From Bacteroidota bacterium (GTDB taxonomy: Bacteria > Bacteroidota > Ignavibacteria > UBA10030 > UBA8401), in contig JBFMFY010000007.1 in assembly GCA_040751955.1 (NCBI GenBank), forward strand, positions 23,949 through 87,948: a DNA stretch of 64,000 bases, read 5' to 3'. The notes below the pieces were generated by a model. It worked only from the letters and a program-made list of their open reading frames with translations, had not been told where the DNA came from and ran no database searches. The stretch's first letter is position 1, and each line of letters starts with the position of its first letter. Below, one piece after another: positions 1 through 53,268 of this stretch. The position numbers were made by a program, and so were the translations under genes.

Positions 1-8
1 CATGTTCT

Positions 9-7454: not shown

Positions 7455-7977
7455 TGGGAGGTTTTGCGGTGTGTAATGTTTTAGAAAAATGTTAAGTCTC
7501 ATTTTTCCCCTCGTAGAGGGGGATTAAGGGGGAGGAGTTGTGAATCAGGAAAAAGCCGGGAAAGACAACCACTACGGATATAACAGCAGACTACAACCAT
7601 TTGCGCGGGCGAACAGAAATGGGATGACGAAAGCCGAAGCATGTCTGTGGAAATATGTTCTGCGTGCGGGAATGATGAAAGGGTACGGTTTTCGGCGCCA
7701 GCGTCCGGTGCTGAACTATATAGCAGATTTTATGTGCAAGGAATTGATGTTGATAATTGAAGTCGACGGCTTCACGCATCAATTTGAAGAGACGATCAAG
7801 AAAGACAAGATCAGGCAACAGCGATTGGAAGAGGCAGGGTTTATTGTGTTGAGATTTACTGATGATAACGTGCTACATAGTATTGAAAACGTTCGTCAAC
7901 AAATTTTGTTTACTGTTGAGACGATCGAAAAGCGAAGGGGAATTTCCTCCCCCGTACCCCCTCAAGGAGAGGGATAG
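7421..7977 (+). mobile_element. DUF559 endonuclease-like cassette with flanking GC-rich hairpins, inserted between the SBP and permease genes.
   Basis: Three hairpins bracket the cassette. The first is CCCCCTC-agg-GAGGGGG at 7430-7450. The second is CCCCTC-gta-GAGGGG followed by GGGGGAGGAG at 7503-7536. The third is CCTCCCCCGTACCCCCTCAAGGAGAGGG at 7946-7975, at the gene's 3' end. The cassette sits between co-oriented SBP and permease genes. Confidence 0.55.
7540..7977 (+). CDS. DUF559 domain protein (Vsr-like / restriction-endonuclease-fold family).
   Basis: The 145-aa product contains 'LW..L....GYGFRRQRPVLNYIADFMC....IIEVDGFTHQ........RQQRLEEAGFIVLRFTDDNV', typical of PF04480. It starts with GTG, or possibly at an internal M. 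Confidence 0.7.
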   Translation: MNQEKAGKDNHYGYNSRLQPFARANRNGMTKAEACLWKYVLRAGMMKGYGFRRQRPVLNYIADFMCKELMLIIEVDGFTHQFEETIKKDKIRQQRLEEAGFIVLRFTDDNVLHSIENVRQQILFTVETIEKRRGISSPVPPQGEG

Positions 7978-8894: not shown

Positions 8895-8976
8895 AAGTCA
8901 TCCGATGAGTGTATTAAATTCTTATGATAAGTCTGGGAAATCGTGCGCATCAAAGTAGTGATTCATCGGATGACTT
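8895..8976. repeat. Perfect 14-bp inverted repeat with a loop of about 54 nt (AAGTCATCCGATGA ... TCATCGGATGACTT), in the intergenic region between the two permease genes.
   Basis: The arms at 8895-8908 and 8963-8976 are exact reverse complements of each other. Confidence 0.7.
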
Positions 8977-9812: not shown

Positions 9813-10029
9813 CATTCATTGTTTGCAACTCAAGTCCTCTCTGTGTGTTGGGAATGTGTGAAAGGGAGAGGGGATTGAGGGATGTGTAAAAAATTAAAAG
9901 AACAATAAAGACTGTTAACTGTATTGTAGTATTTCAAATTTGAAGGAATAACACACCCCTTGCGCCTCTCACCAACACTACAAGCCAATGCTGGAGAGGG
10001 GAATTTGAATCTTAAAAGAGATTGTTAGT

Positions 10030-13000
10030 ATGAAAAAATTTCTTCTCTCCTTGTCCATGGTGATTTCAATTCTCCATTCCCAATCATCCCGTACCTCGCT
10101 TCTTCTCGACGACTGCAACAGCGTAAAGTCTTGGACAACATTCCGATCCACCGGCGTTGAAGTAACACATCAGAACGATCTTGGGACACTGCGCTTTGAT
10201 ATCGAATTTCCGAAGGGTTCCGGTTATGGCGGTGTATTCAGGAATTTTAATTCACATCTGCCCGAGAATTACGATATCTCGTTCATGATGAAATCAACTG
10301 TTCCGGTCAATAACTTCGAAGTAAAAATCAGCAGCGACAGCGGTGGCGGTACGATCTGGTGGGTGAACAATAAAAATTATACGTATCCGGCGGATTGGAA
10401 ACGGATCGTAATAAAAAAACGCCATCTCAGTTTTGCATGGGGACCGAATTATGCGGCGCATCCGTCGAAATTATCCCGATTGGAAATTGTTGTAACTGCA
10501 GGGACCGGAGGAAAGGGGAGTGTCTGGATCGACGATGTTACATTAACGACGCTGCCGGCATCGCCGAAAGAAATTCCGCTCCCCTCAGTTTCTGCATCAT
10601 CCTTTATGGAGAAGAACAGCGAACCATCGAATGTGCTTCCGGGACGAAAAGGATCTTGGATCAGTAAATCAAAGAAGAATGAATGGATCGAACTCGATCT
10701 GAAGTATGAAAAAGAATTCGGCGGAGTAAATCTTCTATGGGATCCTTCGCTGAAAGGATTATCGTACTCCATCCTTACGTCATTTGACCGGAAGAAATAT
10801 GATACGATCTATTCCGTAACGAAGGGAAAATCGGGGAATGTTCACCACTTCCTTCCCGAATCTGAAGCACGGTATGCCCGTTTATTATTGAAAGGCAATG
10901 CGTCGAATCAACCGTTCAAACTTGAAGAATTTTCCGTCATCGCCAGCGAATCGCTCTCCACGCCGAATCATTTTTATGAACGGATTGCCGCCGCATCTCC
11001 GTCCGGATTTTACCCGCGCTACTTCTTAAAGCAGCAGCCGTACTGGACAGTCGTCGGCGTTCCTTCAGACACGCGCGAAGCGTTGTTCAATGAGGATGGC
11101 GTATTTGAAGTGGACAGGCAAAAATTTTCCATCGAACCGTTCATCGCACTCGATCACAACAGGAATATTTTCCACTGGGCGAACGGAAAGAGTGAACAGT
11201 CTCTCGAGGAAAATTATCTCCCAATCCCAACGGTGACACGCACCTATGAAGATGTTGAACTGCGAACCACCCTGCTGGCAGCGGGTGATGCGGGAAGTTC
11301 TGCGGTGATGGCGCGTTATGTTGTGAAGAACTCATCACCGAAAAATCAAAAAGGGTCGTTCTACATTTCGCTCCGACCATTCCAGGTAAACCCTACGTCG
11401 CAGTGGCTCAATTACGATGGAGGTTTTGCAAAGACAAATACAATTTCCATTGTTGGAAATCGTGCAACGGTTGATGATAAAACGGTGATCGTCTCCGGAA
11501 TTCCGACCGCGTTCGGTGCATCGGCGATCGAACAAGGGGATATTACGGATTTCATTGCGCAGAATTCGATCCCACAATCTCCATTTGCAATGCAGTCACA
11601 AGGGATGACCTCCGGTGCGTTTCAATATTCATTCGATTTGAAACCGGGCGATTCGCTTGTGGTGATTGCAGCAGTTCCCTTTACGCCGGAAGGAAACCGA
11701 TGGACAAACGGATTGCCGACTGCTGACGAGTTCGAAAAAACATTTGCTGAAGTGAAATCATTCTGGAAGAAAACATTGAACACTGTCGAGTTCAATGTGC
11801 CGCCCGATGCACAGCGTCTTGTGAATATCATCCGCTCGAATCTTGCCTACATCCTCATCAACAAAGACAAATTCGGATTCCAGCCCGGCTCCCGTTCGTA
11901 CGAGCGATCGTGGATCCGCGACGGTTCGATGACCTCCGACGCGCTGTTGAAACTCGGCATCACCGAAGAACCGAAGAAATATCTTGAATGGTACGCACCG
12001 TACCAATACGAAAGCGGCTCTGTTCCTTGTGTCGTCGATACGCGGGGTCCGGACCCTGTGCCGGAACATGACAGTCACGGTCAGTTGATCTTCGCCTGCA
12101 TGGAATATTTCAGATTTACGAACGATACTGCATTCCTCCGTGCCCGATGGAATAATATTGCTGCAGCGGTCAGTTTTATTCAATCGCTCCGAGCGCAGCG
12201 GATGACGCCGGAATTCCGCGACGGGAACGACGAAAAGCAGGCATTCTACGGATTGGTGACGGAATCCATCAGCCACGAAGGATATTCAGACAAAGCGATG
12301 CATTCGTACTGGGATAACTTTTTCGTGTTGAAAGGATTGAAGGACGCATCTGCCGCCGCTGCCGTGCTTGGCAAACAAAAAGAAGCACGCGAGTACGACT
12401 CACTGGCAAAAGCATTCCGCATTGATCTGTACAATTCCATTGCCCTGGCGATGAAGAACAGGAAGATCGATTACATCCCCGGGTGCGTAGAAAAAGGAGA
12501 TTTCGATGCGACATCAACATCGATTGCGCTCTTTCCAAACGGAGAAATGAAGTTCATTCCACAACCGGCATTCAACACAACATTTGATAAATATTTTGAC
12601 TGGTTTGTTCAAAGAGCAGAAAACAAACTAACATGGGATGCATACACTCCATACGAAATTCGTAACGTTGGAACATTCATTTATCTCGGACAAAAAGAGC
12701 GTGCGCATTATGCGCTTGATTATTTTTTAAAAGACCAGCGTCCGCAGGGATGGAATCACTGGGCGGAAGTTGTTGCGAACGGATATCGCACGATGCGCTT
12801 CATCGGCGATATGCCGCATACATGGGTCGGTTCTGATTACATCAACGCCGTCCGTGCGATGTTTGTGTACGAAATTGATGATGACCACTCCATCGTGATG
12901 GGTGCGGGATTGAAAGAGGAGTGGGTGAAAAAAGGATTATCAATAAAAGGGTTGCCGACACATTACGGGACACTCTCGTATTCTGTTTCTTCTCCATCCG

Positions 13001-13182
13001 ACAGCAGCGTTACAATACAAATTGAAGGAACGGTTAATGCAAACAAAACTCCGCTGTTAATTCCCGTTACGCTCTGTGCGAAACAATTACAACGCGCGAG
13101 TATCAATGGTGTCGCAGTTACGCCGGAGAATGGATTTATTGTGATAAAGCAGTTGCCCGCGAGTGTGGAGATGATCTACTAG
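10030..13182 (+). CDS. Large secreted protein with N-terminal carbohydrate-binding (discoidin/F5/8-C-like) modules and a C-terminal (alpha/alpha)6-barrel glycoside-hydrolase-like domain (GH15/GH63-type 'WIRDGS' region).
   Basis: The signal peptide is 'MKKFLLSLSMVISILHS'. A 'NASNQPFKLEEF' CBM-like segment is present. 'ERSWIRDGSMTSDALLKLG...EWYAPYQYESGSVPCVVD' resembles six-hairpin glycosidases. The family assignment is uncertain. Confidence 0.4.
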   Translation: MKKFLLSLSMVISILHSQSSRTSLLLDDCNSVKSWTTFRSTGVEVTHQNDLGTLRFDIEFPKGSGYGGVFRNFNSHLPENYDISFMMKSTVPVNNFEVKISSDSGGGTIWWVNNKNYTYPADWKRIVIKKRHLSFAWGPNYAAHPSKLSRLEIVVTAGTGGKGSVWIDDVTLTTLPASPKEIPLPSVSASSFMEKNSEPSNVLPGRKGSWISKSKKNEWIELDLKYEKEFGGVNLLWDPSLKGLSYSILTSFDRKKYDTIYSVTKGKSGNVHHFLPESEARYARLLLKGNASNQPFKLEEFSVIASESLSTPNHFYERIAAASPSGFYPRYFLKQQPYWTVVGVPSDTREALFNEDGVFEVDRQKFSIEPFIALDHNRNIFHWANGKSEQSLEENYLPIPTVTRTYEDVELRTTLLAAGDAGSSAVMARYVVKNSSPKNQKGSFYISLRPFQVNPTSQWLNYDGGFAKTNTISIVGNRATVDDKTVIVSGIPTAFGASAIEQGDITDFIAQNSIPQSPFAMQSQGMTSGAFQYSFDLKPGDSLVVIAAVPFTPEGNRWTNGLPTADEFEKTFAEVKSFWKKTLNTVEFNVPPDAQRLVNIIRSNLAYILINKDKFGFQPGSRSYERSWIRDGSMTSDALLKLGITEEPKKYLEWYAPYQYESGSVPCVVDTRGPDPVPEHDSHGQLIFACMEYFRFTNDTAFLRARWNNIAAAVSFIQSLRAQRMTPEFRDGNDEKQAFYGLVTESISHEGYSDKAMHSYWDNFFVLKGLKDASAAAAVLGKQKEAREYDSLAKAFRIDLYNSIALAMKNRKIDYIPGCVEKGDFDATSTSIALFPNGEMKFIPQPAFNTTFDKYFDWFVQRAENKLTWDAYTPYEIRNVGTFIYLGQKERAHYALDYFLKDQRPQGWNHWAEVVANGYRTMRFIGDMPHTWVGSDYINAVRAMFVYEIDDDHSIVMGAGLKEEWVKKGLSIKGLPTHYGTLSYSVSSPSDSSVTIQIEGTVNANKTPLLIPVTLCAKQLQRASINGVAVTPENGFIVIKQLPASVEMIY

Positions 13183-13338
13183 ATATTGTGATTTTACAGA
13201 CATATCGCTATTGCCAAACGTATTACTGAGGTATCCACACGGCGCAGACGGATTTTCCCGCCTTGTTCTGCAATGAAACTCTCCGTACATTGTATCTGTC
13301 CATTAATTTTCAGGATTTCCATTACTAATACTTCACAC

Positions 13339-14163
13339 ATGAAAACTCTCATTGATGTGTTGACGCTGATTCTGCCGGTTATCTACGGAGGATTGGTCTG
13401 GCTGTACGCGAAAAATTTTTTTACCGATGCTCCGCTTCATAAAAATGTGCAGAGATTTTTCGTTATTCCGGCAGTCATTCTCCACGCAGGCTATCTCATT
13501 GTCCGGACGGAAGCGTTCGATCACGTTCCCATCACCACGATGTACGAGATCATGTCGCTGATCTCGTTTGCCATTTTTATTGTCTATCTCATTATCGAGT
13601 ACATGATCAAAGTAAAAGGGACAGGCTTTTTTATCATTACATTGTCGTTTATCTTCCAGATTATTTCGTCGCTCTTTATTGAAGATCTGCTGGAAGTGAA
13701 ACCTGTCCTGCGCAGCAAACTTCTCGGTACGCATGTCTCATCCGCGCTTGTCGGGTACGTCGGACTGGCGCTTGCCGCGGTGTACGGATTTCTGTATATC
13801 ATGTTATACCGTAATATCAAGGCAAAACGCTTCAATGCCTTCTATACAAAATTGCCAAATCTGGAAATTCTTGAGCAAATGACCTCAATTTCCATAGCAA
13901 TTGGCTTTGTCTTTCTTGGCATAGCGATTGCAGTTGGTATGATATGGCTTCCCCGGGCGTTTGAGCATTTTTCGTATTTTGACCCGAAATTGGTTATTAC
14001 AATATGCATATGGATCATGTACGGAATTGCGCTTCTGGCAAAACGGTATTCGGGATTGAAGGGGCGACGCTTTATGATACTTGCAATCGCCGGATTCGTC
14101 GTGTCGTTTTTTTCGCTAACGGTGGGGAATTTGTATTTCAGCAATTTTCATAATTTTTATTGA
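13339..14163 (+). CDS. Polytopic membrane protein of the cytochrome c assembly (CcsA/HemX-like) family, located upstream of hemA.
   Basis: The protein is about 275 aa with about eight hydrophobic segments. Its position directly upstream of hemA matches B. subtilis hemX and Chlorobi/Bacteroidota ccsA-like genes. No WWD heme-handling motif was seen, so HemX-like is favoured. Confidence 0.45.
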   Translation: MKTLIDVLTLILPVIYGGLVWLYAKNFFTDAPLHKNVQRFFVIPAVILHAGYLIVRTEAFDHVPITTMYEIMSLISFAIFIVYLIIEYMIKVKGTGFFIITLSFIFQIISSLFIEDLLEVKPVLRSKLLGTHVSSALVGYVGLALAAVYGFLYIMLYRNIKAKRFNAFYTKLPNLEILEQMTSISIAIGFVFLGIAIAVGMIWLPRAFEHFSYFDPKLVITICIWIMYGIALLAKRYSGLKGRRFMILAIAGFVVSFFSLTVGNLYFSNFHNFY

Positions 14164-16429: not shown

Positions 16430-17208
16430 CAAGGCAGCTACCACTTTCCGGCAAAACAATTGTAGTCACGCGGCGGAAAGAACAGGCAAAAGAATTTTCC
16501 GAACTGTTGATGCAAAAAGGAGCAAACGTTCTTCTTTTTCCTGCACTGGAGATCGTAGCGCCTGATTCGTGGAGAGAGTGTGATGTCGCTCTGGATCGGC
16601 TGAACAGCTATTCCGGAATTATTTTTACCAGTTCAAACGCGGTAAAATACTTCCTGCAGCGCGTCAGCTATCGAAAGCAATCGGCGCAGTTGAACAATCT
16701 TGCACTCTACGCCGTGGGTGAAACAACGGAAAATGAAATCAAGAAATCTGGTTTTCACGCAGAGCAATTGCCGGATACATTTTCCGCACAGGAGCTTGCA
16801 CAAGCAATTGCACAAACCAGTGTCAGGGGTAAACGATTCTTGTTTCCGAGAGGGAATCTTTCAAAAAATGACATCCAGGCGATTTTGACGGTGAACGGTG
16901 CAGTGGTTGACGATGTTGTCGTGTACACGACACAGGAACTGCCGCTCAATAACGAACGGAGAAATATGTTGAGTGAGATTGAACAACGAGCAGATTTGAT
17001 TACGTTCTTCAGTCCGTCGAGCGTGCGCCATAGTATGAATTACGCTCGGAATATTTTTTCACTGAAAAATGCGGCAGTGATAGGCGAAACAACAGCTGCC
17101 GCCGCACGTCAAGAGAATTTGAATGTTGTTCTTGTTGCGCCGCGTTCAACCGCCGCGGCATTTGCAGATGCGATAGAAAAGTTTTATACAAAAATAACCG
17201 AACAATAG
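16426..17208 (+). CDS. hemD: Uroporphyrinogen-III synthase.
   Basis: The HEM4 family signature 'KTIVVTRRKEQAKEFSELLMQKGANVLLFPALEI' is present. There is a 4-nt overlap with hemC. Confidence 0.85.
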   Translation: MTRQLPLSGKTIVVTRRKEQAKEFSELLMQKGANVLLFPALEIVAPDSWRECDVALDRLNSYSGIIFTSSNAVKYFLQRVSYRKQSAQLNNLALYAVGETTENEIKKSGFHAEQLPDTFSAQELAQAIAQTSVRGKRFLFPRGNLSKNDIQAILTVNGAVVDDVVVYTTQELPLNNERRNMLSEIEQRADLITFFSPSSVRHSMNYARNIFSLKNAAVIGETTAAAARQENLNVVLVAPRSTAAAFADAIEKFYTKITEQ

Positions 17209-17215
17209 AAATTGG

Positions 17216-17300
17216 TCACCCTGAGCATGTGCCGGCGTTTATTAACGGTATGCGTCGAAAGGTTATCCTTCGATGTGCTCGCGTACTCAGAATGAATTCC
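17216..17300. repeat. Degenerate member of the nested-palindrome repeat family, in the hemD-hemE intergenic region.
   Basis: The sequence reads cctgagcatgtg...GCGTCGAAAGG..CCTTCGATG...actcagaatga, with the same 'tcgaagg / ccttcga' core as the other copies. Confidence 0.5.
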
Positions 17301-23320: not shown

Positions 23321-23372
23321 TATAGTCATGCTGAGCAAGTCCGCCGTAGGCGGACGCGTCGAAGCATATCCC
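23321..23372. repeat. Nested-palindrome repeat copy between hemB and hemL.
   Basis: The sequence is tatAGTCATGCTGAGCAAg-tccgccgtaggcgga-cGCGTCGAAGCAT. Confidence 0.6.
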
Positions 23373-24687: not shown

Positions 24688-24718
24688 GTCATTCCCGCAT
24701 ACTTTGAGCGGGAATCTA
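24688..24718. repeat. Hairpin repeat 'GTCATTCCCGC-N10-GCGGGAATC' between hemL and tRNA-Glu. It may act as a terminator.
   Basis: An 8-bp stem ATTCCCGC/GCGGGAAT is present. It has the same core as 37520-37545. Confidence 0.55.
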
Positions 24719-27900: not shown

Positions 27901-28160
27901 CCCTCTTTTGAGACTGAACGGATCTCTTTGACATCTTTCAATCCCTTCAACGCGCGCTCGAGCGGCTGGGAAATTAATCCTTCGATGTCAATGGGTGAAA
28001 CGCCGATGTACGGAGTTGAAACGATAACGAGAGGAATGGTAATGTCCGGCGTTGCTTCCCGCGGCAAATCATTGTACGACGTGTACCCAAAGATGACGAT
28101 CAAAATCATTAACAGGTAAACGGCTGTTTTATTATCAACTGCTATGTTCCAGATTTTCAT
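24942..28160 (-). CDS. Efflux RND transporter permease subunit (AcrB/CzcA superfamily).
   Basis: The N-terminus is 'MKIWNIAVDNKTAVYLLMILIVIFG'. The protein is 1072 aa with 12 TM segments and large periplasmic loops. Confidence 0.9.
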   Translation of the reverse strand: MKIWNIAVDNKTAVYLLMILIVIFGYTSYNDLPREATPDITIPLVIVSTPYIGVSPIDIEGLISQPLERALKGLKDVKEIRSVSKEGLSTISIEFNTGIDIDEALRRVRDKVNSTRSQLPADILDPIVSEINISEFPIMYVNAVGDVGAARLKNVAEELQDKIESVPGVLRADIVGGLEPEIQVNVDVYRMNAYQVSFDDVSGAIRVENLSIPGGTIETKEKNLTVRVPGEFKQVKPLEDIILKIQNGKPIYLRDVATVKSSFEDRQTYSRLNGNEVVTLAVRKRAGENLVRIADEVKRIIAVEQSNLPDGIKLEISSDQSRFIKRMVHELENSIYTGMFLVVLALFMFFGFKNSLLISTAIPLSMFTGYIVLSAMGITLNMVVLFSLLLVLGILVDDAIVVIENTYRHQQEYGEEPNAAAKNAAGEVFIPVLTSTVTILSAFIPLLFWPGIVGEFMKFLPITLIVTLTASLFVAYVISPVQAAKWIDYKREIKKAKFNLEHPHWYKKYNPFTWLYHEVDDKFFPWMQKNYVQVIRWTLHNKKKTMLGSFILLLTIIVLFGLFNKGVEFFPNTEPAQISISIECPSGASLEITNGIAKILEERLEKIPGRKDVEFIVSRIGTSDNVFDFGGQGTSNKGSVAINFFEKDFRKQSTFVTMEEVREKLAGIAGADLRLTKQQMGPPVGAPVNIEVSGEDYTQLATLSKQIREKIKDVPGLVDLKDDYNTGRPEVEIIVDREKAGLFWTSTGQIASTVRAAIAGVEASKYRVGEDEYKIRVRLKEDQRTAPADLENLRINFMNRRGQLLSIPLTSVATIRRTTSVTDIRRKDMKRVITVSGDVEGRVQSEVINDVKARIAGIEMPNGYSVKLTGSEEEQQKASDFLSRAFVITLLLVFLIMVMEFNSMKVPFVIMISVILSLIGVLFGLLVTRTALSVMMTGVGIVALAGIVVRNGIILLDFVKHKHNEGGLSLDDALLEAGRVRLRPVLLTAAAAVLALIPMGTGFDFNWTEFHFVTGSESAGFWRPLAVAIIFGLTFSTFLTLVVVPTAYSLVDEWTEKIKEWMKEKFVKEKEY

Positions 28161-28174
28161 GCTATGTACTCCTG

Positions 28175-28296
28175 AGTATCATGCTTCGACGCAGTGCAAT
28201 AGAGTATCGTCATCCTGTGCAAGTCCCGATGCATTGTATCGGGACGCGTCGAAGGATGATCCATTTTGCGTATTGCACCTTGTTCAGCATGACTAT
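28175..28296. repeat. Full-length nested-palindrome element of about 120 nt between the RND pump and adaptor genes.
   Basis: The sequence reads catgcttcgacgcagtgcaatagag..GTCATCCTGtgcaag-[tcccgatgcattgtatcggga]-cGCGTCGAAGGATGAtc...ttgttcagcatgactat. The outer arms (atagtcatcctg / cagcatgactat) and the inner arms (tcatcct / aggatga) are both inverted repeats. Confidence 0.7.
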
Positions 28297-28315
28297 CTTT
28301 TTATTCTCTATTTTT

Positions 28316-29350
28316 TTATTCCGTCACCACAACCGGCGAGCCGTTGATCAGTTTCTGATACCCGGTGACAATCAAATGTTCTCCGATGTTCAATCCCGAT
28401 GTCACCTCAACGAGATTTCCCTGGCGGCCGCCGATTGTAATGCGCCGTTCTTCCGCAATGCCGTTGTTGTTCACATAAACAACGTACCGGTCGCGGTCTA
28501 CCAGTTGAATGATATTCTCACTGACGAGGATTGCGTCGGTTTTTTTCCTCCGGACAAGATTCACCTTTGCGACCATTTCAGGTTTGATCCTGCCGTGCGG
28601 ATTCTGCAGCACGATCTCGATGAGCATCGTGCGGTTCGCAGCCGAAACGGTTGAACTGACGAACGATACAGTGCCGTTCAGCACTTCACCGGGAACAGCG
28701 TCAAACGTCACCGATGCGGGTGTTCCTGTTTTTATCGTGCCGGCATATAATTCGGGAATCTCCGCTTGTATCTTAATCATGGATGTGTTCACTACCCGGG
28801 CAATCGGAACGCCGGGCGGAGCCATTTCGCCGGCATTCGGCATCGTATTGTCAACCACGCCGTCAATCGGACTGCGAAGTTGCGTCCGTTCCCAGCGCGC
28901 TTTCATCAAGTCGGCGTTGGCTTTTGCGGCGTCACGGCTGTAGATCATATTCTTGTACTGCAATTCGCTGATCCCTTGCTGTTCGTACACCGACTGCTGC
29001 TTTTCGACATTGAGTTGCGCGATCCGGTATTGCGCTTCGGCGGCGTCGTATCCCGCTTTGATCACTTCATCTTTGAGAATAACGATAAGATCACCTTTCT
29101 TCACATGGTCTCCCTTTTTTTTCACCCACTCTTTCACGACACCCCCTTCTTCGGGGCTTATCATCACATCTTCAAACGCTTTCACCGTACCGGCAACCTG
29201 AATGCCGTCGATCATGGGAGATGGTTTGATTTGTTGGACCGTAACGTTGACCGGTTGGACTTTTTGCGTGCTGCCTGTTTCTTCTTTTGTGCAGGAAGAA
29301 ACGCCGAGAAGGAAAACACAGATGACAACTGCGGTTGATATTTTTTTCAT
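28316..29350 (-). CDS. Efflux RND transporter periplasmic adaptor subunit (membrane fusion protein, HlyD/AcrA family), lipoprotein.
   Basis: The lipobox is 'LLGVSSC'. The protein shows biotinyl/lipoyl-like hairpin and beta-barrel MFP architecture. Confidence 0.85.
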   Translation of the reverse strand: MKKISTAVVICVFLLGVSSCTKEETGSTQKVQPVNVTVQQIKPSPMIDGIQVAGTVKAFEDVMISPEEGGVVKEWVKKKGDHVKKGDLIVILKDEVIKAGYDAAEAQYRIAQLNVEKQQSVYEQQGISELQYKNMIYSRDAAKANADLMKARWERTQLRSPIDGVVDNTMPNAGEMAPPGVPIARVVNTSMIKIQAEIPELYAGTIKTGTPASVTFDAVPGEVLNGTVSFVSSTVSAANRTMLIEIVLQNPHGRIKPEMVAKVNLVRRKKTDAILVSENIIQLVDRDRYVVYVNNNGIAEERRITIGGRQGNLVEVTSGLNIGEHLIVTGYQKLINGSPVVVTE

Positions 29351-29382
29351 TGATGGATTCCTTTGTTATTCATTTCTTTGGA

Positions 29383-29500
29383 ACATGCTTCGACGCAACG
29401 CAATAGAGCATAGTCATCCTGAGCAAATGCCGATGTTGGTATCGGCATGCGTCGAAGGATGACGCAATTCTATAAATTGCGCTTTGCTCAGCATGACTAT
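29383..29500. repeat. Second full-length copy of the same nested-palindrome element, between the adaptor and TolC-like genes. It is about 85% identical to the 28175-28296 copy.
   Basis: The sequence reads gaacatgcttcgacgcaacgcaatagagcatAGTCATCCTGAGCAAa-[tgccgatgttggtatcggca]-tGCGTCGAAGGATGAcgcaattctataaattgcgctTTGCTCAGCATGACTAT. Confidence 0.7.
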
Positions 29501-29525
29501 ATTTTTTTTGAAACGAGGACATTTC

Positions 29526-30917
29526 TTACTCCTCCTCTTCCCGCGCATACTCCGGCAGGCGGCCGAGCATCGAATCGAGTTCGGCAGCAGCGACGAGATA
29601 ATCATAGATCGACTGCATACGGTTCACTTTCGCCTGAGAGAGCGCAAGCTGCGCATCGTTCACTTCCAATTGCGTTGCAGCATTTGTAAGGAAGCGGGCG
29701 GTGACGATCTTGTAGCCACGTTCCGCCGTCTCGACAGTCTTCTGCTGAGCATCGATACGCTTACGCGCCTGGCGCAGGTTTCCGATCACAGAACGTACGC
29801 CCATCTGCAGATTCCGTTCGAGACTTCCTTTTTGTTCTTCTGTTTTCTGTTTCTCCAGCTGCGCCTGTTCAATGCGCGAACTTGTCTGCAGTCCCTGAAA
29901 AAGATTGAGCGAGAATGTCAATCCCACCTGCGATTGTTTGTAAAAGTCGTTCGTCGAAATTCTGTAATCATCTTTGATCGCCGTGTACGAGTACGAACCG
30001 TACGCCGCGATGGTGGGGAGGAAGTTTGCTTTCTCCGCATACACCAATGCATCGTTCAATTCGATCTGATGTTGTACGATGTTGAGAGCCGGGTTCGATT
30101 CCAGTACGGTTTCATTCGCTGTCATCAATATGGATTCGTCCACTTCCTGCAGCGTTAAACTTTCTGCCGGGATGAAGTTCACCGAATCCGCGACGCCGAT
30201 TGTGTTGCGGAGATTGTCAACAGCAAGATTAAAATTTGTCTCGGACTGAATAACAATCGGGCGGAGATTTTCCACGCCGACTGTTGCGCGCAGTTCGTCG
30301 TATTCGGAGACGATGCCCTGTGACCGCATCAATTGCACATTCTTCAGATTTTCTTCTGCATTTTTCAGATTGGATTGCATCATCGTCAGCGCTTCACGTG
30401 CCAGCAGCGCGCCATAATATGCTTTGCGGACTTTTGTTACCGTCTCGACCTTCTTTTGAAGGAAGATATCCCGCGCCATCTTTGAATAGATATTTGCCGC
30501 ACCAACGCCGATGAAGACCGATCCGTTGAAGAGAATCTGCCGCACGTTCAATGCGGCATTGGCAGAATTTGTGGGGGACATTGAGAAAGGGAGCTCGATC
30601 AGTTGACCGGTCGGCTTCGGTACTTTTGCCGAAGAGTCCATCAGTTTCACGAGCGGATAATAGATTGCATCGGGAAAATAACTCTTCGGCTTGGAGACAA
30701 TGTGGTTGAAATTGCCGCTGAGATCGACTGACGGCATCGTGTATCCCCATGCTTCCATCACACGCGCGTCGGAACGCTCCACCTCCAGCCGCGCGGAAAC
30801 GAGCTCGGGATTATGCTGTATCGCCATTTGGACTGCTGCATCGATCGTGAGCGAGAGTTGCGTAGTGTCTTGCGCGGTTAAACCAAGAGGGACCAAAATA
30901 AAAAATGACGATGTCAT
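29526..30917 (-). CDS. Outer-membrane efflux protein (TolC-like OMF).
   Basis: The start is taken at 'MTSSFFILVPLGLTAQ' (ATG ending at 30917), followed by 'IDAAVQMAIQHNPELVSARLEVERS' and two OEP repeats. The ORF-track N-terminal extension to 31208 runs through the repeat elements and is rejected. Confidence 0.8.
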   Translation of the reverse strand: MTSSFFILVPLGLTAQDTTQLSLTIDAAVQMAIQHNPELVSARLEVERSDARVMEAWGYTMPSVDLSGNFNHIVSKPKSYFPDAIYYPLVKLMDSSAKVPKPTGQLIELPFSMSPTNSANAALNVRQILFNGSVFIGVGAANIYSKMARDIFLQKKVETVTKVRKAYYGALLAREALTMMQSNLKNAEENLKNVQLMRSQGIVSEYDELRATVGVENLRPIVIQSETNFNLAVDNLRNTIGVADSVNFIPAESLTLQEVDESILMTANETVLESNPALNIVQHQIELNDALVYAEKANFLPTIAAYGSYSYTAIKDDYRISTNDFYKQSQVGLTFSLNLFQGLQTSSRIEQAQLEKQKTEEQKGSLERNLQMGVRSVIGNLRQARKRIDAQQKTVETAERGYKIVTARFLTNAATQLEVNDAQLALSQAKVNRMQSIYDYLVAAAELDSMLGRLPEYAREEEE

Positions 30918-31165
30918 TGCGAGGGAGCGCAGCGACCGAAGCAATCTGTTGCTTCTGCGACAAAAAAGGAGATTGCTTCGCCAAACAACGGCTCGCAATG
31001 ACAATGCTTTTCTGCTGTTATTCTGAACAAAGTCCCGACGCAGCGTATCTCCTCCGTGTCGGGACGGAGTGAACCCGCCTGCCGGACGGGCAGGGAATCC
31101 ATCTTCTGGATTCTTCGTCGTCCCGCACAACGCGGGACTCCTCAGAATGACACGGTTGAGGTATT
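30895..31165. repeat. Cluster of 5-6 consecutive GC-rich hairpins and repeat modules between tetR and the tolC-like gene. It overlaps the tolC start codon.
   Basis: GTCATTGCGAGGGAGCGCAGCGACCGAAGCAATC lies with its partner GCTCGCAATGAC. The hairpins are gtcccgac..gtcgggac, cctgccggacgggcagg, gaatcca..tggattc and gtcccgcacaacgcgggac. The module 'ctcctcagaatgacacgg' is shared with 33640-33660. Confidence 0.65.
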
Positions 31166-31204
31166 CTGTTATGCTTCTTGTCTGATGTGATTTGTTTTCT
31201 CTTT

Positions 31205-31888
31205 TCATCTGTACCTCGTATTCAATATTCTGTGTAATTCTTCTTTTCCTTTGTCGGTCAGTATGGATTCAATCAACAGTGTCGTGGAGAGTCGAAGCGT
31301 ATGTTTCAGGTCGATATTCATCGTTTCTTTCCAAAGATCGTACTGCGCGTCGATCCGCATCAGCAGCGTTGTCGCATTCGACCAGAGGACGATCGTTATT
31401 TCGACCGGGCTGAGATCGTCCCGCACCAACCCCTGCCGGACACCCTGTTTCAACGCTTCGATGACGATATTCCACAACTGCTGCGCAACAGAGTCGCATG
31501 AGTGCCTCATCTCCGCAGAGACCTGTTTGTGGAATTGCGGCGTCTCGAAGAAATGCATCATGCGGAAATAGTTTTTGTGCTCTTCGTAGAATTTTGAATA
31601 TGTCTCGCTGAGGTTCAGCAGTGTTACGAGGAACGGAGCCCGTGCGTCGATATCGGAGCGGAACATGTCGTTCAGCAGCGACATACCCCGCATCATGACG
31701 GCGAGGTAGAGATCTTCCTTGCTATGATAATAGAGATAGAGAGTTCCTTTGGCTAGCTCCGCCTGTTCTGCGATCTCGTCCATGGTAGCAAGAAGCAGAC
31801 CTTTGTCGAAGAAGACTTTCTGTGCGGCGTCTATGATCGATTCTTTGCGGCTCTCTTTTTCCCGTTCTTTGCGTTCAACGGTGCCCAT
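31205..31888 (-). CDS. TetR/AcrR family transcriptional regulator, likely repressor of the downstream efflux operon.
   Basis: The HTH region is 'SIIDAAQKVFFDKGLLLATMDEIAEQAELAKGTLYLYYHSKEDLY'. Confidence 0.85.
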   Translation of the reverse strand: MGTVERKEREKESRKESIIDAAQKVFFDKGLLLATMDEIAEQAELAKGTLYLYYHSKEDLYLAVMMRGMSLLNDMFRSDIDARAPFLVTLLNLSETYSKFYEEHKNYFRMMHFFETPQFHKQVSAEMRHSCDSVAQQLWNIVIEALKQGVRQGLVRDDLSPVEITIVLWSNATTLLMRIDAQYDLWKETMNIDLKHTLRLSTTLLIESILTDKGKEELHRILNTRYR

Positions 31889-32371
31889 TTTTTTCCACTA
31901 AGGCACGAAGTTACAATTAAGAGTCTCACGTTTCAGGATTCAGGTTTCAGGTTTTTAATCATCAAGGCAGACTTTAAGCATGAGACATGAAATGTGAAAC
32001 CTGAAGCAGTATTCGTGTTTGTGAACTTATAAACAGGGACTGACTTGCGGTCAGTTACTACATGCAAGTCTTGCAAGTTTTTTGTTGGTAAGCAAGAATG
32101 AAATCAGGAAAAATATTTTGTTATTCGGACAAATCGCTCTTGGGAAAACAAACGGAATTGCAGAAAATGAAATCCGGAGAAGAATGTGCTGTATTCAATT
32201 TTTTTCACCGAGAAAAATATCTGTTTTCATTGTCGCTTTTTTCCAACGTAACAATTGTGACATTCTACGGAGATGGGGACGAAGAAGTTGCTAAAATATT
32301 GGCGGGCGTGTGTTACGGAATTTTTGGAAAAAATGTTTGGCAAGTGTGAACAGAATAACTGCGGTTCATTC

Positions 32372-33571
32372 TTACAGTATGTTCCGGTATGATTCAGTGA
32401 TTTCGGATCTCATCATATCGAAGAGCGGTGAATGCAGAGATCGTTTCATAGAAGAAATCAATAGTGTCGCTTCCACATACGCCGCCGTGTACGTCGTGCC
32501 GCGGTACTCGGGATAAAACGGATTAACGGTGATTGCAGCGAGAAGGATAGGTTTACGATACGAGATGATGATGTTGAGTCCGGTCAGTTGTGCAATGTGT
32601 TGTGCGGTGCGCTGCGGCTCGCCGGAAAGAAGGAGGGAGATGGGATCGGTGAAGATAATTTCATGCGGGCGGTCTGCTTCTTGCAGGAGACGAATTCTTT
32701 CGGTAAGTGTTTGCAAACCAATCGATGTAATCAATCCATTGATAATAAGTGGATTCCCGCTTTCGCTGGAACGACAATCCTCTTTATAATGTAATATTAA
32801 CTTTTCGACTTCCGTTGCGTCAATAATGGTTGAGGAGGAGCTCCCGGCAGGTAAAGCGAGATTCTTCGCTTCGCTCGGAATGACATTGATTGAGAAGTTG
32901 TTTTGTTTATTATTCCACTGCGTCTTACCGAATTGAAATAAGAATTCAATCGCTTTCATTTCCTCAACAAGAGCGGCAATGTCGGTTGTCCGTGCTGCGC
33001 CGGTGGTGAAGATGATCTTGTCGACAACAGACATCGGTGCAATACGATTGAGCGAACCATCAACAAAAATATCTTTGCAACCTAAATCTGTCATCTGTCG
33101 CACAACCTTTTCGAGTTCGCTCCGTTTGTTCGGTCCCGCAAGCACAATCAAGCCGGGTGTCTCACATCGCACAATGACGATCTCGCCGAGCGCAGTGTAC
33201 AATCCGGTTTTCTGAATGATGCTCCAGCCTCTCGCCGGCACGCATTGCAACGATGTTGAAGCGATCATTCCATGATGAAGAAAGATGCGCGGCTTCGGAA
33301 GTGATGTGATGTTGTCGATCTCTTCGCCGTCATAGCCGATACTGGTAACGCCGGTTGTCATTCGGAACGAAGTCCCGAAGGGACGAGTGAGGAATCTGGA
33401 CTGAATATGCGGCGGAGAAGCAGATTTCTCGCCTCCTTCGTCGGCTCGAAATGACACCGATGAAGTATTGTCTGCATCCAGAACTCCAAACTGAGATTTG
33501 TGAAGCAGCGCGTTGAGCGTGGTGGTCTTGCCGGTGTTCTTTGCCGTCCCTGCGATGCCGATGATGGACAT
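32372..33571 (-). CDS. P-loop NTPase with a deviant Walker A motif (SIMIBI-class, KxxxGKTT). It may be a B12-enzyme accessory/chaperone. The coding sequence carries two repeat-derived segments.
   Basis: The N-terminus is 'MSIIGIAGTAKNTGKTTTLNAL'. The region 33356-33456 is a palindromic repeat element read in-frame ('VSFRADEGGEKSASPPHIQSRFLTRPFGTSFRMT'). A degenerate repeat remnant lies at 32751-32780 ('RSSESGNPL'). Confidence 0.5.
   Translation of the reverse strand: MSIIGIAGTAKNTGKTTTLNALLHKSQFGVLDADNTSSVSFRADEGGEKSASPPHIQSRFLTRPFGTSFRMTTGVTSIGYDGEEIDNITSLPKPRIFLHHGMIASTSLQCVPARGWSIIQKTGLYTALGEIVIVRCETPGLIVLAGPNKRSELEKVVRQMTDLGCKDIFVDGSLNRIAPMSVVDKIIFTTGAARTTDIAALVEEMKAIEFLFQFGKTQWNNKQNNFSINVIPSEAKNLALPAGSSSSTIIDATEVEKLILHYKEDCRSSESGNPLIINGLITSIGLQTLTERIRLLQEADRPHEIIFTDPISLLLSGEPQRTAQHIAQLTGLNIIISYRKPILLAAITVNPFYPEYRGTTYTAAYVEATLLISSMKRSLHSPLFDMMRSEITESYRNIL
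33356..33456. repeat. Nested-palindrome element embedded in-frame inside the P-loop NTPase coding sequence.
   Basis: The sequence is TGTCATTCGGAACGAAG-tcccgaagggac-...-gagaagcagatttctcgcctccttcgtcggCTCGAAATGACA. Its terminal inverted repeats match the intergenic copies. Confidence 0.6.
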
Positions 33572-33589: not shown

Positions 33590-33695
33590 TGAGGAATTTC
33601 TTTACTGGATTCTTCACTTCATCCCGATCTAAATCATCGGGACTCGTTCAGAATGACACGGTATATTCAGATTTCTCGCTTTGCTCGAAATGACA
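33590..33695. repeat. Repeat element between the P-loop and aminomutase genes.
   Basis: The hairpin tcccgatctaaatcatcggga, 'ctcgttcagaatgacacgg' and 'gatttctcgctttgctcgaaatgaca' are present. The last is the reverse complement of the 35842 module. Confidence 0.6.
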
Positions 33696-35841: not shown

Positions 35842-35928
35842 TGTCATTTCGAGCGAAGCGAGAAATCTCGCCGTTGAATTTGAAAAGAAAAACGAGATTC
35901 CTCGTTAAACAGCAACTCGGAATGACAT
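35842..35928. repeat. Repeat element upstream of the small-ORF/aminomutase pair.
   Basis: The sequence is TGTCATTTCGAGCGAAGCGAGAAATCTCG ... CGAGATTCCTCGTTAAACAGCAACTCGGAATGACA. Confidence 0.6.
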
Positions 35929-37519: not shown

Positions 37520-37580
37520 TGTCATTCCCGCGAAAGCGGGAATCCAGGATCTGGATGCCGGCGTACGCTGGCATGACGAG
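37520..37580. repeat. Repeat element GTCATTCCCGCGAAAGCGGGAATCC plus a second module, between the PLP enzyme gene and the small ORF.
   Basis: A perfect hairpin ATTCCCGC-gaaa-GCGGGAAT is present. The overlapping ORFs translate to the spurious peptides '...FPRKRESRIWMPAYAGMT' and 'WIPAFAGMT'. Confidence 0.7.
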
Positions 37581-47300: not shown

Positions 47301-48821
47301 GAAGAAGCGCTTCGCCGGAGCGAGGAAAAATACCGTTCGCTCTTTGAAGAATCGAAAGACGGCATTTACATCAGCACTTACTACGGAAAATTCATCGATG
47401 TCAATCCGGCAATGGTGGAACTGCTTGGATATGAGACAAAAGAAGAATTGCTTGCACTCGACATTAAAAAAGATGTGTACTACAATCCGTCGGACAGGGA
47501 AAAACTCAAAAAGGCATTTGCCAATAAATCATACGTAAAAGACCTCGAACTTTCGTTGCGCCGCAAGGACGGTTCTGAACTGAATGTGCTGTTGACATCG
47601 ACCGTTGAGCGGGGAACCGATGGCAATGCATTGTTCTATAGTGGAACGGTGCGGGACGTTACTGAACGGAAGCGCCTCGAAGAGCAATTGATGCAGGCGC
47701 AAAAGATGGAAAGCATCGGCACGCTGGCGGGAGGCATCGCGCACGACTTCAATAATCTGCTTGCCATGATCCTGGGAACAGCGGAGTTGATTCAACAGAA
47801 AGTTTCCGATAATCCGGCGATCAACACCTACATCAAAAGGATCATCGAAGCGTCGGAACGGGGTGCATCGATCTCGAGACAATTGCTGCTCTTCTCCCGC
47901 CCCGAACACTCGGAACTGCAGCCCCTGTCTGCTTCCGTCGTGATGGAACGCCTCCATGATTTTCTGTCGCACTTCCTGCCGAAGAACATCACCGTTAAAT
48001 GCGCTATCGAAGACAAATCTGCTGTTATCATGGGGGATGATGGCCACCTGCATCAGGCATTCGTCAACCTTGCTTTGAACGCCAAAGACGCAATGCCGAA
48101 CGGCGGGACCTTGACGCTCGCTCAATCCGTTGTCGAGAGCAGCATCGTCAGAAAAAAATTTCCCGGCGCAGACAACCATCAATATGTTGCGCTCAGTATT
48201 CACGATACAGGCATCGGTATTGAACAACATCTGATGCAGAGGATTTTTGAACCGTTCTTCTCGACGAAGGAACGGGGAAAGGGAACGGGGCTCGGTCTTG
48301 CGATCGTGCACGGTATCGTGCAACTCCATCACGGATATATTGATGTCGAAAGTGAAAAGGGAATCGGGACACAATTTACGATGTACTTTCCTTCTTTGGC
48401 GATTGAGATTCACGACAATTCACGGGAAAAAGAAATGACTACACAACACGGCACCGGTACTATACTGATTGTTGACGATGAAGAGATCCTTCGCGAGATT
48501 CTTGCAGAAACCTTACGCGATGAGGGGTACACCGTACTGCTCGCATCGGACGGGTACGATGCGTTGAAAGTCTTCCAGGAACACCAACAACAAATCTCCC
48601 TGGTGATAACCGATCTCGGCATGCCGAATATGGGAGGCGAGCAACTTTATGATAAACTCAAAGAATTGGATCCGCATATTAAAGTCCTCGTTTCCTCGGG
48701 ATATTTGGACACCTCCAGTAAATCCGATCTGCTGCGAAAAGGGATCAAGGATGTTCTGACAAAACCGTACAAGTTTGAAATCATTTTTGAGACTGTGCAA
48801 AGGGTGCTTTCGTACGATTGA
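44394..48821 (+). CDS. Hybrid sensor histidine kinase: REC, PAS, GAF, more PAS domains, HisKA, HATPase_c and a C-terminal REC (1475 aa).
   Basis: The N-terminal REC is 'VLIVEDEKIVALDL...IILMDIALKG'. Multiple 'DITERK' PAS/PAC ends are present. The H-box is 'HDFNNLLAMILG', the G-box is 'GTGLGLAIV', and the C-terminal REC is 'ILIVDDEEILREIL...ITDLGMPNMGG'. An ATGA overlap links it to the upstream kinase. Confidence 0.85.
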   Translation: MKKKKVLIVEDEKIVALDLRSIFLRAGYAVLPDISTAQRAIDVALKEHPDIILMDIALKGKTDGIEAAEKILQTADIPIIFITANSDPKTLDRAKTIDPYGYILKPFDERDVRTIVEMALYKHQTERELKEQQRWLNTTLRSIGDAVIATDKKGNVKFMNNIAETLTGWSEAEAIGKKLQDVFIVENEETGKRLPNPVAKVLRERKPLSVTNHTILISKEGIRTYIEDSAAPILAFDGSIIGVVLTFRDVNEKRLAQDALNVSEKRFRALIEKSTEGITVLDANGIIQYTTGASTPIVGHRIGELKGKNVFEFVHPDERENDLHLFAELLQLPGKAIHHEIRFKHKDGSWRWLEITATNLLHDPAVVGVVVNFRDITYRKEAEENLNHINQRLNLISRVTGEVIGWLPIQKQVREMAEQVQHAFQVDAVVVRIVDDGELHLLASIGVPDHQLSEKIPLYYGIADQIIKSRRAVAYKDVRENFATAMLQQKAAQEISKYDFISYAGAPLLIGHTVIGIIGLFTHTRTMEFTPMDLEHLQIVANHIAVAVANNRLFREVREQNIELTQHIEEQKKAEQLLRVSEERYRAFVEQSSEGIYRTAFMQPISVDLPIDEQVRLMFERSYIAECNAVMAKMYGFNSIQEAIGKRIRDMLVESDPHNIEYMRTFIRKGYKFFDEESHERDKDGAIKYFMNNGIGIIEDGMWLGVWGTQRDITERKLAENALRESEERYRALVEFSPNAIAVHVKGIVQFVNQAAIRLMGASHADELVGRNVIEFVHPDHRAKVVERIKKVYANEAAPPQEQLWLRKNGTTVEVEVVSIPFMFEGEPAAQVIARDITERKQAEGALRESELRLRSLFENAKDAVFIADTKTGIIIDANAEAEKLLKRPRTEIIGMHQTDIHPPDRIDEALSIFREHILTLGEHPIEFEVVNAEGERIPVEIKASIIRLDDNRIVAQGIFRDITERKATEEALRRSEEKYRSLFEESKDGIYISTYYGKFIDVNPAMVELLGYETKEELLALDIKKDVYYNPSDREKLKKAFANKSYVKDLELSLRRKDGSELNVLLTSTVERGTDGNALFYSGTVRDVTERKRLEEQLMQAQKMESIGTLAGGIAHDFNNLLAMILGTAELIQQKVSDNPAINTYIKRIIEASERGASISRQLLLFSRPEHSELQPLSASVVMERLHDFLSHFLPKNITVKCAIEDKSAVIMGDDGHLHQAFVNLALNAKDAMPNGGTLTLAQSVVESSIVRKKFPGADNHQYVALSIHDTGIGIEQHLMQRIFEPFFSTKERGKGTGLGLAIVHGIVQLHHGYIDVESEKGIGTQFTMYFPSLAIEIHDNSREKEMTTQHGTGTILIVDDEEILREILAETLRDEGYTVLLASDGYDALKVFQEHQQQISLVITDLGMPNMGGEQLYDKLKELDPHIKVLVSSGYLDTSSKSDLLRKGIKDVLTKPYKFEIIFETVQRVLSYD

Positions 48822-52832: not shown

Positions 52833-53268
52833 CACACAAAGGCACAAAGGACTATGTCTGAAAATGAGATTGCAAAGATCGCCGTTGATGTTGCCTATCA
52901 CTTGCATTCCGATTTGGGTCCCGGATTACTAGAATCTGTCTATCAAGAGTTACACGTTGATAAATTGAGAGGTCGTGGTTTAACTGTGGAAACAGAAGTT
53001 GACCTTCCTATCGTCTATGATGGTAAAAGATACAAATCCACTTTTCGTATTGATATTTTAATTGAGAAAAAAATTGTTATTGAATTAAAGTCGGTGGAGA
53101 ATCTTTTACCTGTTCACAAAAAACAATTGCTCACCTATTTAAAATTAAGTAATCTTCGGTTGGGTTTGCTCATTAATTTTGGCTCGCCGTATTTTAAAAG
53201 CGGAATTGAGCGCATTATAAACGCTACGTTGGAGTGACATTTTATTTTTTCCTTTGTGTCTTTGTGTG
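52833..53268 (+). mobile_element. Cassette carrying a GxxExxY (PD-(D/E)xK-fold) gene, bracketed by 18-bp inverted repeats.
   Basis: The left arm, CACACAAAGGCACAAAGG at 52833-52850, sits directly after the activator stop. The right arm, CCTTTGTGTCTTTGTGTG at 53251-53268, is its reverse complement with 17 of 18 matches. It sits directly before the kinase gene. Confidence 0.55.
52854..53237 (+). CDS. GxxExxY family protein (PDDEXK_3 nuclease-fold).
   Basis: The family-defining motif 'GPGLLESVYQ' is present. The 127-aa length is typical. Confidence 0.75.
   Translation: MSENEIAKIAVDVAYHLHSDLGPGLLESVYQELHVDKLRGRGLTVETEVDLPIVYDGKRYKSTFRIDILIEKKIVIELKSVENLLPVHKKQLLTYLKLSNLRLGLLINFGSPYFKSGIERIINATLE

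Follow-up and report, generated by a model that had tools for sequence, protein, structure and literature searches.

CGTC-tagged palindromic repeats with extended and nested forms in a 64-kb stretch of an Ignavibacteria-like genome

CGTC-tagged repetitive extragenic palindromic (REP) sequences are short DNA repeats grouped into the families CGTC-1 to -4 (Di Nocera, De Gregorio, Rocco 2013, BMC Genomics 14:522, PMC3733652). Their definition comprises a CGTC/TGTC (or CCTC) tag, a stem of 8-9 bp in which the first pairs are A-T and T-A, a loop of 4-5 nt and a short unpaired 3' tail that is mostly CCA; tags-outside (HH) dimers predominate, intragenic copies occur, the hosts include Chlorobi and Bacteroidetes, and the 2013 survey contained no tyrosine transposase gene flanked by CGTC repeats (PMC3733652). 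CGTC-1 corresponds to Rickettsia RPE-6 and Neisseria dRS3, and CGTC-4 to RPE-4, the peptides encoded by CGTC-1 include SFPRKRES, VIPAKAGI, DSRFRGND and WMPAFAGMT (Additional file 3), and many REPs have been suggested to work as RNA (PMC3733652). Here, a family of palindromic units is described from a 64,000-nt stretch of contig JBFMFY010000007.1 (hereafter the window), one protein of which has its nearest relatives, by homology search, in Ignavibacteriales. Judged by sequence and predicted fold, the units are members of the CGTC-tagged REP superfamily, and they are likely to be selfish or neutral palindromic DNA with a putative mobiliser acting in trans.

The units are assigned to the superfamily because their tag, AT-start stem and CCA-type tail, the 8-bp stem and GAAA loop of the unit at 37521, and the tags-outside dimers fit the published definition; the short units were placed at superfamily level, against that written definition (PMC3733652). 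These short units share with the described CGTC REPs a C/TGTC tag, a stem that starts with AT, a stem of 8-9 bp with a loop of 4-5 nt and a CCA-like tail. Further common properties of the window and the described repeats are the predominance of HH dimers, the occurrence of heterodimers and of intragenic in-frame copies, and the lack of a linked transposase. The initial annotation of the window had linked the core words to spurious IPAFAGMT and SFPRKRES ORFs in FCB-group genomes, and this link is borne out, as SFPRKRES, VIPAKAGI and PAFAGMT are all among the CGTC-1-encoded peptides (Additional file 3, PMC3733652), which are the reading frames of the 37521 unit. In contrast to the described repeats, the extended units of the window have a GA-rich internal loop and a hairpin of 8-40 nt in place of the loop, and the 113-nt nested composite lies outside the 2013 classification, while the hosts, which are Ignavibacteria-like and also include Acidobacteriota, Clostridia, Fibrobacter, Verrucomicrobiota, Omnitrophota and others, are outside the 2013 species list (PMC3733652).

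Other described systems resemble the window units in part. Rickettsia RPE-6 and RPE-4 share in-frame insertion into coding genes, the identical peptides SFPRKRES/VIPAKAGI and dimers that add 20-35 residues, although the window host is a free-living member of the Fibrobacteres-Chlorobi-Bacteroidetes (FCB) group and most window copies are intergenic. Neisseria dRS3/NIMEs display the same ATTCCC-N8-GGGAAT core (window 37524-37543) and cluster in intergenic mosaics. In Neisseria, dRS3 borders the RS blocks and is used by prophages for integration; neither feature was seen in the window. The GTAG REPs, REPINs and BIMEs with REP-associated tyrosine transposase (RAYT) also combine a tag with a hairpin, occur as inverted dimers able to form a single long hairpin and have proposed effects on mRNA stability, and complex loops with inner paired regions are known from GTAG-3 and GTAG-14. 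The window tag, however, is YGTC rather than GTAG, and no RAYT was found in the 64-kb window. Bacterial miniature inverted-repeat transposable elements (MITEs) such as Correia and Nezha are likewise small, non-autonomous, palindromic and intergenic or intragenic, whereas the window units are without a consistent signature of terminal inverted repeats plus target-site duplication, and no parent insertion sequence (IS) was found. The first description of the units as nested palindromes of REP/MITE-like type is supported as regards REP-like nested palindromes and not supported as regards MITEs, since target-site duplications are not consistent and the sole terminal inverted repeats are the palindromic tags.

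Read along the tag strand, a unit opens with YGTC, the unpaired tag, and continues with the outer stem AT-NNN, usually a G·A/A·G tandem mismatch, a short linker, an interior, a mirror linker, the returning GA-N'N'N'-AT and a C-initial, C-rich tail. The interior is free sequence able to fold, ranging from a loop of 3-5 nt to a hairpin of 8-40 nt. Three grades can be distinguished: short units, such as GTC ATTTC GA GC GAA GC GA GAAAT C at 35843; extended units, with the grammar GTCAT-N-CTGAGCAA-hairpin-GCGTCGAAG-N'-AT; and nested composites, in which an outer minus-strand unit has, in the place of its hairpin, a middle stem of 6-9 bp that carries an inverted inner unit on the plus strand, and each strand shows one unit per polarity. 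A nested layout had been proposed earlier for these copies and is what the sequence contains. The mismatches are purine-purine on the tag strand and would be pyrimidine-pyrimidine on the other, and because of this the tag strand is taken to be the structured one.

Individual parts of the unit vary to different degrees. The base preceding GTC is T, C or A in the window, T in 83 of 124 distinct extended units from the wide sample described below (C, A or G in the rest) and T in 162/220 units matching pattern P1 (defined below) in the wide sample. GTC-AT...AT is present in all window units bar the degenerate ones at 17215, 31017 and 32750, and AT closes 96/124 extended units of the wide sample. 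The 37521 unit has an 8-bp stem with a GAAA loop, while those at 35843 and 33671 have nine stem positions, including two G·A, with a GAA loop; the published dimensions (8-9 bp stem, 4-5 nt loop) are absent from the extended units, with 8-40 nt in place of the loop, and from the nested composites, with about 85 nt. CCA is the tail after 37543 and that of the minus-strand units 31110-31151, 33609-33657, 37553-37577 and 32750-32777; in the remaining window units it is CTC, CTG or CTA, and about 85% of tails in the wide sample begin with C. Units occur singly, as tags-outside dimers or as nested composites. Paired units in the window are mostly tags-outside dimers, often joining two different subtypes, and six such HH dimers are present (30913/30972, 31017/31110, 33357/33424, 35843/35897, 37521/37553 and, probably, 17215/17262).

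At Rfam gathering thresholds a tRNA was the sole match in the window, with none at the units, and relaxing the threshold to E values of up to 10 over 28100-31250 gave chance-level matches only. The CUGAnGA-stem-GAA arrangement resembles a hammerhead ribozyme, but stem I and A14 are absent and no model matched. A kink-turn was rejected on inspection, as no 3-nt bulge lies beside the G·A pairs. Intrinsic terminators were likewise set aside: the terminator scan lists no terminator-like site at any unit, and T runs follow the composites on the antisense strand only.

Patterns, model matches and counting by eye together give at least 21 units at 12 sites, all within 17.2-37.6 kb of the window (Table 1). 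Pattern P1 (GTCAT-NNN-GA...GA-N'N'N'-AT, with at most one mismatch) matched 12 times, whereas 200 dinucleotide-preserving shuffles gave 1.4 matches on average and at most 6, and pattern P2 (GTC and, directly after it, an AT-initial perfect stem of 7 bp or more) matched twice, against 0.16 in shuffles. A covariance model, R1, trained solely on units from other genomes, independently recovers units of the window, and its matches are listed in Table 1. All ten sites named in the initial annotation carry units. The folding of full-length units proposed there gave stable structures: for both strands, and with RNA as well as DNA folding, the z-scores of the window elements are -4 to -6. The two best-preserved copies, about 113 nt long, are 80% identical (91/114) and not about 85%, as had been stated. 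Within 17-38 kb, 9/10 gaps of at least 85 nt carry units, compared with 0/9 outside this region (p=1.2e-4).

The extended and nested forms also occur in other genomes. A scan for the exact extended unit GTCATNCTGAGCAA-N8-38-GCGTCGAAG, in one genome per species, recovered at least 115 stretches; the hosts among the matches listed include Acidobacteriota, Bacteroidota, Ignavibacteria, Clostridia (Oscillospiraceae, Faecousia), Fibrobacter, Verrucomicrobiota, Omnitrophota, Eremiobacterota, Planctomycetota, Acidiphilium and Anaerococcus. Viral contigs contributed just three matches and plasmids none. The GA-rich internal loop, 5'-CTGAGCRR...GMGTCGAAG-3', is letter-for-letter the same across more than ten phyla, including Proteobacteria, and both flanking helices covary. 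N pairs with N' in 118 of the 124 distinct extended units (C-G 84, T-A 28, G-C 5, A-T 1), the interior is G-initial and C-final in 102, and it is closed by at least 3 bp in 69% of them, compared with 6% in shuffles. Pair counts from alignment A3 agree, although three inner pairs are imposed by the sequence selection and only pair 8-49 is independent. Two linker variants, GCGA..GAGTC and GCGG..GAGTC, coexist. The nested composite was found in nine further places, in an Ignavibacteriales metagenome-assembled genome (MAG), Chitinophagaceae and other Bacteroidota, and in all nine the middle stem is 6-9 bp long and varies in sequence between copies, the shuffled mean being 1.2. In the Oscillospiraceae MAG RGIG3079 (loci L009, L048, L064, L067, L072, L074, L088 and L096) there are many near-identical tags-inside dimers with a conserved spacer of ~33 nt, up to four per 8 kb, a pattern that indicates recent proliferation in a Firmicute. 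Literature string searches with encoded peptides and DNA words found no description of extended or nested forms. The extended unit, with its pan-bacterial G·A internal loop, and the nested composite thus appear to be undescribed variants of a known superfamily.

The relationship between the units and their host genes is most readily seen in an efflux operon, which encodes a TolC-like outer-membrane protein (OEP), a HlyD-type adaptor (MFP) and an AcrB pump, and is adjoined by tetR. Units fill all three gaps, tetR/OEP, OEP/MFP and MFP/AcrB, so that the earlier claim that every gap of the operon is occupied is correct. In the window, a stretch of 21-35 nt separates the end of a unit from the start codon that follows, and the ribosome-binding site is undisturbed. 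For comparison, three syntenic loci that preserve the gene order of the window, L001, L002 and L003, were used; they carry seven, zero and six units, respectively, and in L002 no gap yielded a unit by pattern or by R1. As the orthologous operon of L002 is without units, the efflux operon does not require them. In the OEP/MFP gap, both the flank 'aaaataaaattaccgY' and the exterior of the unit are common to L001 and L003, with unrelated interiors, and the window has a nested composite at this position. Units of the same gap with a common exterior and unrelated interiors show that interiors turn over while exteriors persist, a turnover that may be due to recombination between units. A near-identical subtype of the 24688 unit occurs in L001 at 17063-17090, in another position. 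In L002, which is the sole unit-free relative, a restriction-modification pair (N6_N4_Mtase and HinfI-like) is inserted at 11205-13676, between the P-loop gene and tetR.

The 5' end of the OEP gene overlaps a unit. The gene lies on the minus strand, and its plausible starts, ATG (the complement of CAT, 30915-30917) and TTG (30942-30944), are both inside the unit 30913-30945. The initial annotation was hence right in placing the start of the tolC-like gene within a repeat module, while the plus-strand ATG that it quoted is not the start codon. Should translation begin at the TTG (30942-30944), the peptide 'LRSLRSLA' encoded by the unit may form the charged n-region of the OEP signal peptide, a proposal that derives from comparison with unit-free OEP orthologs.

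Units are also located within coding sequence (32750-32884 and 33357-33455), a feature that the initial annotation lacked. Both of these sites are in the gene for a P-loop protein of 399 aa. The homology search turned up no strain-level relative, the best non-self homolog of this protein, from Ignavibacteriales, being 61% identical (BLASTP). After its Walker-A helix the protein has ~44 extra residues, which are absent from 10/11 aligned homologs and present in the L001 Ignavibacteriales ortholog. This insert is the 99-nt HH dimer 33357-33455, which contributes about 33 of the ~44 residues; DNA alignment of the window dimer with that of L001 shows that the first unit is 32/36 identical, while the interior of the second unit is replaced. 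The units at 32861-32884 and 32750-32777 encode residues 230-237 and 266-274. In L003-type P-loop proteins the ~28 residues between these two units are missing and one hybrid unit is left (L003 9871-9918, P0005), which suggests a deletion by recombination between units. In the AlphaFold model, residues 30-69 and 222-246 of the P-loop protein have a pLDDT of <50 and no secondary structure, consistent with in-frame units being tolerated in what are predicted to be surface loops.

If the units are selfish or neutral DNA, these properties would fit together as follows. Non-coding and non-autonomous, the units would multiply within genomes, and at orthologous sites they would be acquired or lost and have their interiors remodelled. 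On the model of RAYT and the GTAG REPs, a putative trans-acting enzyme would recognise the tag and the hairpin foot on single-stranded DNA, where the tag strand would be the active one because its mismatches are purine-purine, and interiors would be swapped via recombination between units. Between cistrons, insertions just upstream of the ribosome-binding site would be tolerated, and in the efflux operon the units would be passengers that add a stable hairpin to each intercistronic stretch of the mRNA. The mobiliser was sought at several levels. No open reading frame (ORF) in the 64 kb examined matched a transposase family, including Y1_Tnp, no protein family recurs next to the units in 119 loci with units, and ORFs bracketed by units were ordinary housekeeping genes only. 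The suggestion that the repeats are transposition by-products of neighbouring cassettes finds no support in these results.

Several observations weigh against selfish or neutral DNA as the full explanation. The transposase search covers 64 kb of the genome, and a RAYT-like gene elsewhere is possible. No pair of filled and empty sites was seen at strain level. The units are clustered at 17.2-37.6 kb, and the conservation of the internal loop across more than ten phyla exceeds the obvious need of a purely selfish hairpin. Finally, the single units of the window, L001 and L003 are without exception in the sense orientation (11/11, p=0.001), which hints at a constraint at the RNA level; as GC skew is positive throughout the window, the sense units follow the gene strand despite a constant skew, which speaks for a connection with transcription rather than for a rule set by the replication strand.

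A more specific version of mobilisation in trans, in which the units are REPIN-like and the genome encodes, at another place, a HUH/Y1 (RAYT-type) transposase dedicated to moving them, is possible though unlikely. In architecture the units are analogous to GTAG REPs, both having a tag of 4 nt at the hairpin foot and forming inverted dimers, but the tag is not GTAG, and neither Y1_Tnp nor any other transposase is encoded in the window. The strand-asymmetric purine-purine mismatches on the tag strand and the lack of target-site duplications, as in IS200/IS605-type chemistry, would both fit such an enzyme, against which stand the 119 loci in which no protein recurs beside or between units. Loops are ambiguous in this respect. 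Of 19 triloops, 13 are GNA with a C-G closing pair, a type that makes for very stable minihairpins in DNA; as CUUG and GNRA loops occur beside them, loop types cannot separate DNA from RNA. The 2013 survey, as noted above, is also without a tyrosine transposase gene flanked by CGTC repeats (PMC3733652).

It is unlikely that the units are instead host-beneficial RNA elements, selected in the sense orientation as intercistronic stabilisers, processing sites or translational-coupling modulators in polycistronic mRNA. The 11/11 sense units, their orientation with the gene strand rather than with GC skew and their position between the stop codon and an undisturbed ribosome-binding site would all be explained, yet the orthologous L002 operon has no units, and the subtypes at the same gap differ between relatives. 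In the wide sample, in which orientation counts rest on crude gene calls, the bias of single units is weak (31 co-directional versus 20, p=0.16), as is that of the outer unit of nested composites (9 in sense versus 4, p=0.27); units inside ORFs were in sense in 19 cases versus 6 (p=0.015), and their presence within coding sequences is itself at odds with an intercistronic role. The folds are very stable, the internal loop is conserved across phyla and a function of REPs as RNA has been suggested (PMC3733652), but dimers and composites show a unit on both strands, and the units have neither an Rfam match nor terminator-like sites. There is a rather slim chance that a universal host factor recognises the internal loop, or that the loop is a nucleic-acid motif with catalytic or ligand-binding activity, and that the nested composite serves to present it on both strands; if so, the CGTC elements would be a pan-bacterial functional module, not junk DNA. 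Highly improbable is an origin of the units as MITEs, that is, as deletion derivatives of a DDE-transposase IS with the palindromic ends (TGTCAT...ATGACA) as terminal inverted repeats, since, although tags-outside dimers resemble elements of 60-135 bp bounded by such repeats and the dimer in the P-loop gene is flanked by ATCGG...ACCGG, the remaining dimers have no flanking duplication, single units are common, as are tags-inside dimers in other phyla, dimer halves are often of different subtypes and no parent IS was found.

In FCB-group genomes and many others, CGTC-type repeats give rise to spurious 'hypothetical proteins' and N-terminal extensions of genes by the thousand, and an explicit grammar (tag, AT stem, G·A loop, free hairpin and tail, with long and nested forms) enables annotators to mask them. 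The extended and nested forms broaden the known host range and architecture of the CGTC family. The four-locus syntenic series, with 0, 6, 7 and more than 15 units, and the in-frame dimer that two diverged orthologs have in common provide a system for studying unit gain and loss, interior swapping and the tolerance of proteins to insertions.

The units of Table 1 are set in two gene blocks. Up to 24.7 kb the genes are on the plus strand and comprise a heme-biosynthesis cluster followed by a class-III aminotransferase gene. The block at 24.9-39.6 kb is on the minus strand and contains gntR, a DAPDH-like gene, DUF6917, a 488-aa gene, a gene for a B12-binding mutase-like protein, the P-loop gene, tetR, OEP, MFP and AcrB.

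Table 1. Palindromic units of the window (positions in the window; R1, covariance model; z, folding z-score; HH, tags-outside)
Feature	Position	Strand	Location	Evidence
Degenerate extended unit GTCACCCTGAGCAT...GCGTCGAAAGG	17213-17266	+	hemD-hemE gap	R1 17213-17266, E=0.14 (weak)
Weaker inverted remnant	17262-17298	-	Same hemD-hemE gap	R1 E=2
Single extended ('type-A') unit GTCATGCTGAGCAA-[GTCCGCC GTAG GCGGAC]-GCGTCGAAGCAT	23325-23367	+	hemB/class-III aminotransferase gap	R1 23323-23370, E=1.7e-10
Short CGTC-type unit cGTC ATTCCCGC-atactttga-GCGGGAAT cta	24688-24715	+	12 nt past aminotransferase stop codon	P2, 8-bp stem
Nested composite, outer GTCATGCTGAACAA...GCGTCGAAGCAT, 9-bp middle stem plus inverted inner unit	28181-28293	-	MFP/AcrB gap	RNA fold -46.8 kcal/mol, z -5.3
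Inner unit GTCATCCTGTGCAA-(GTCCCGAT...ATCGGGAC)-GCGTCGAAGGAT	28209-28257	+	Within composite 28181-28293	R1 28207-28260, E=1.5e-7
Nested composite, architecture as 28181-28293 and 80% identical to it	29385-29497	-	OEP/MFP gap	z -4.9
Inner unit of composite 29385-29497	29413-29460	+		R1 29411-29463, E=2.9e-8
HH dimer, 30913-30945 (+) and 30972-31002 (-), stems ATTGC/GCAAT	30913-31002	.	OEP coding 5' end overlaps first unit	z -4.3
HH dimer, degenerate two-hairpin 31017-31098 (+) and 31110-31151 (-) GTCATTCTGAGGA-(GTCCCGCG..)-GACGAAGAAT CCA	31017-31151	.		R1 31107-31153, E=3e-4; z -5.2
Two same-orientation short units, 32861-32884 ('VIPSEAKN') and 32750-32777 ('RSSESGNPL'), flanking native helix	32750-32884	-	P-loop coding sequence	R1 32858-32886, E=0.0057
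HH dimer, in frame	33357-33455	.	P-loop coding sequence	Pattern census, alignments
Two tandem sense units, extended 33609-33657 and short 33671-33694	33609-33694	-	B12/P-loop gap	R1 33606-33659, E=0.0025
HH dimer, 35843-35866 (+) and 35897-35926 (-)	35843-35926	.		Repeat finder, pattern census
HH heterodimer, canonical CGTC-1 form tGTC ATTCCCGC GAAA GCGGGAAT CCA (37521-37543, +) and GTCATGCCAGCGTACGCCGGCAT CCA (37553-37577, -)	37521-37577	.		

The window contains other repeats and unusual ORFs. The direct-repeat families D1, D2 and D7 (42973-47692) are coding repeats at PAS-domain boundaries in two large sensor kinases and are not mobile elements. A DUF559 (Vsr-like endonuclease) domain lies inside a GH2 glycosidase ORF (3-3107, aa 299-405), a free-standing DUF559 ORF (7540-7977) is wedged among ABC-transporter genes, and a PDDEXK_3 ORF is located at 52854-53237; none of the three is flanked by CGTC units. 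A second, unrelated repeat family consists of G/C-run palindromes, for example CCCCTCGTAGAGGGGGATTAAGGGGGAGG, at ~7505-7535, ~9860-9885 and ~9960-10010 of the window and at 4137-4243 of L001. Between two permease genes, at 8897-8974, a 12-bp inverted repeat, GTCATCCGATGA...51 nt...TCATCGGATGAC, starts with GTCAT and does not follow the unit grammar. GTTTCAG/CTGAAAC heptads build a palindromic element upstream of tetR (31925-32010), which is also found at 2553-2666 of L001 and at 5224-5317 of L003, in both relatives in the gap between DUF6917 and the 489-aa gene. The upstream region of tetR contains, in addition, the palindrome ACTGACCGCAAGTCAGT (32039-32055), which is conserved in 4/4 syntenic loci and is a likely TetR operator.

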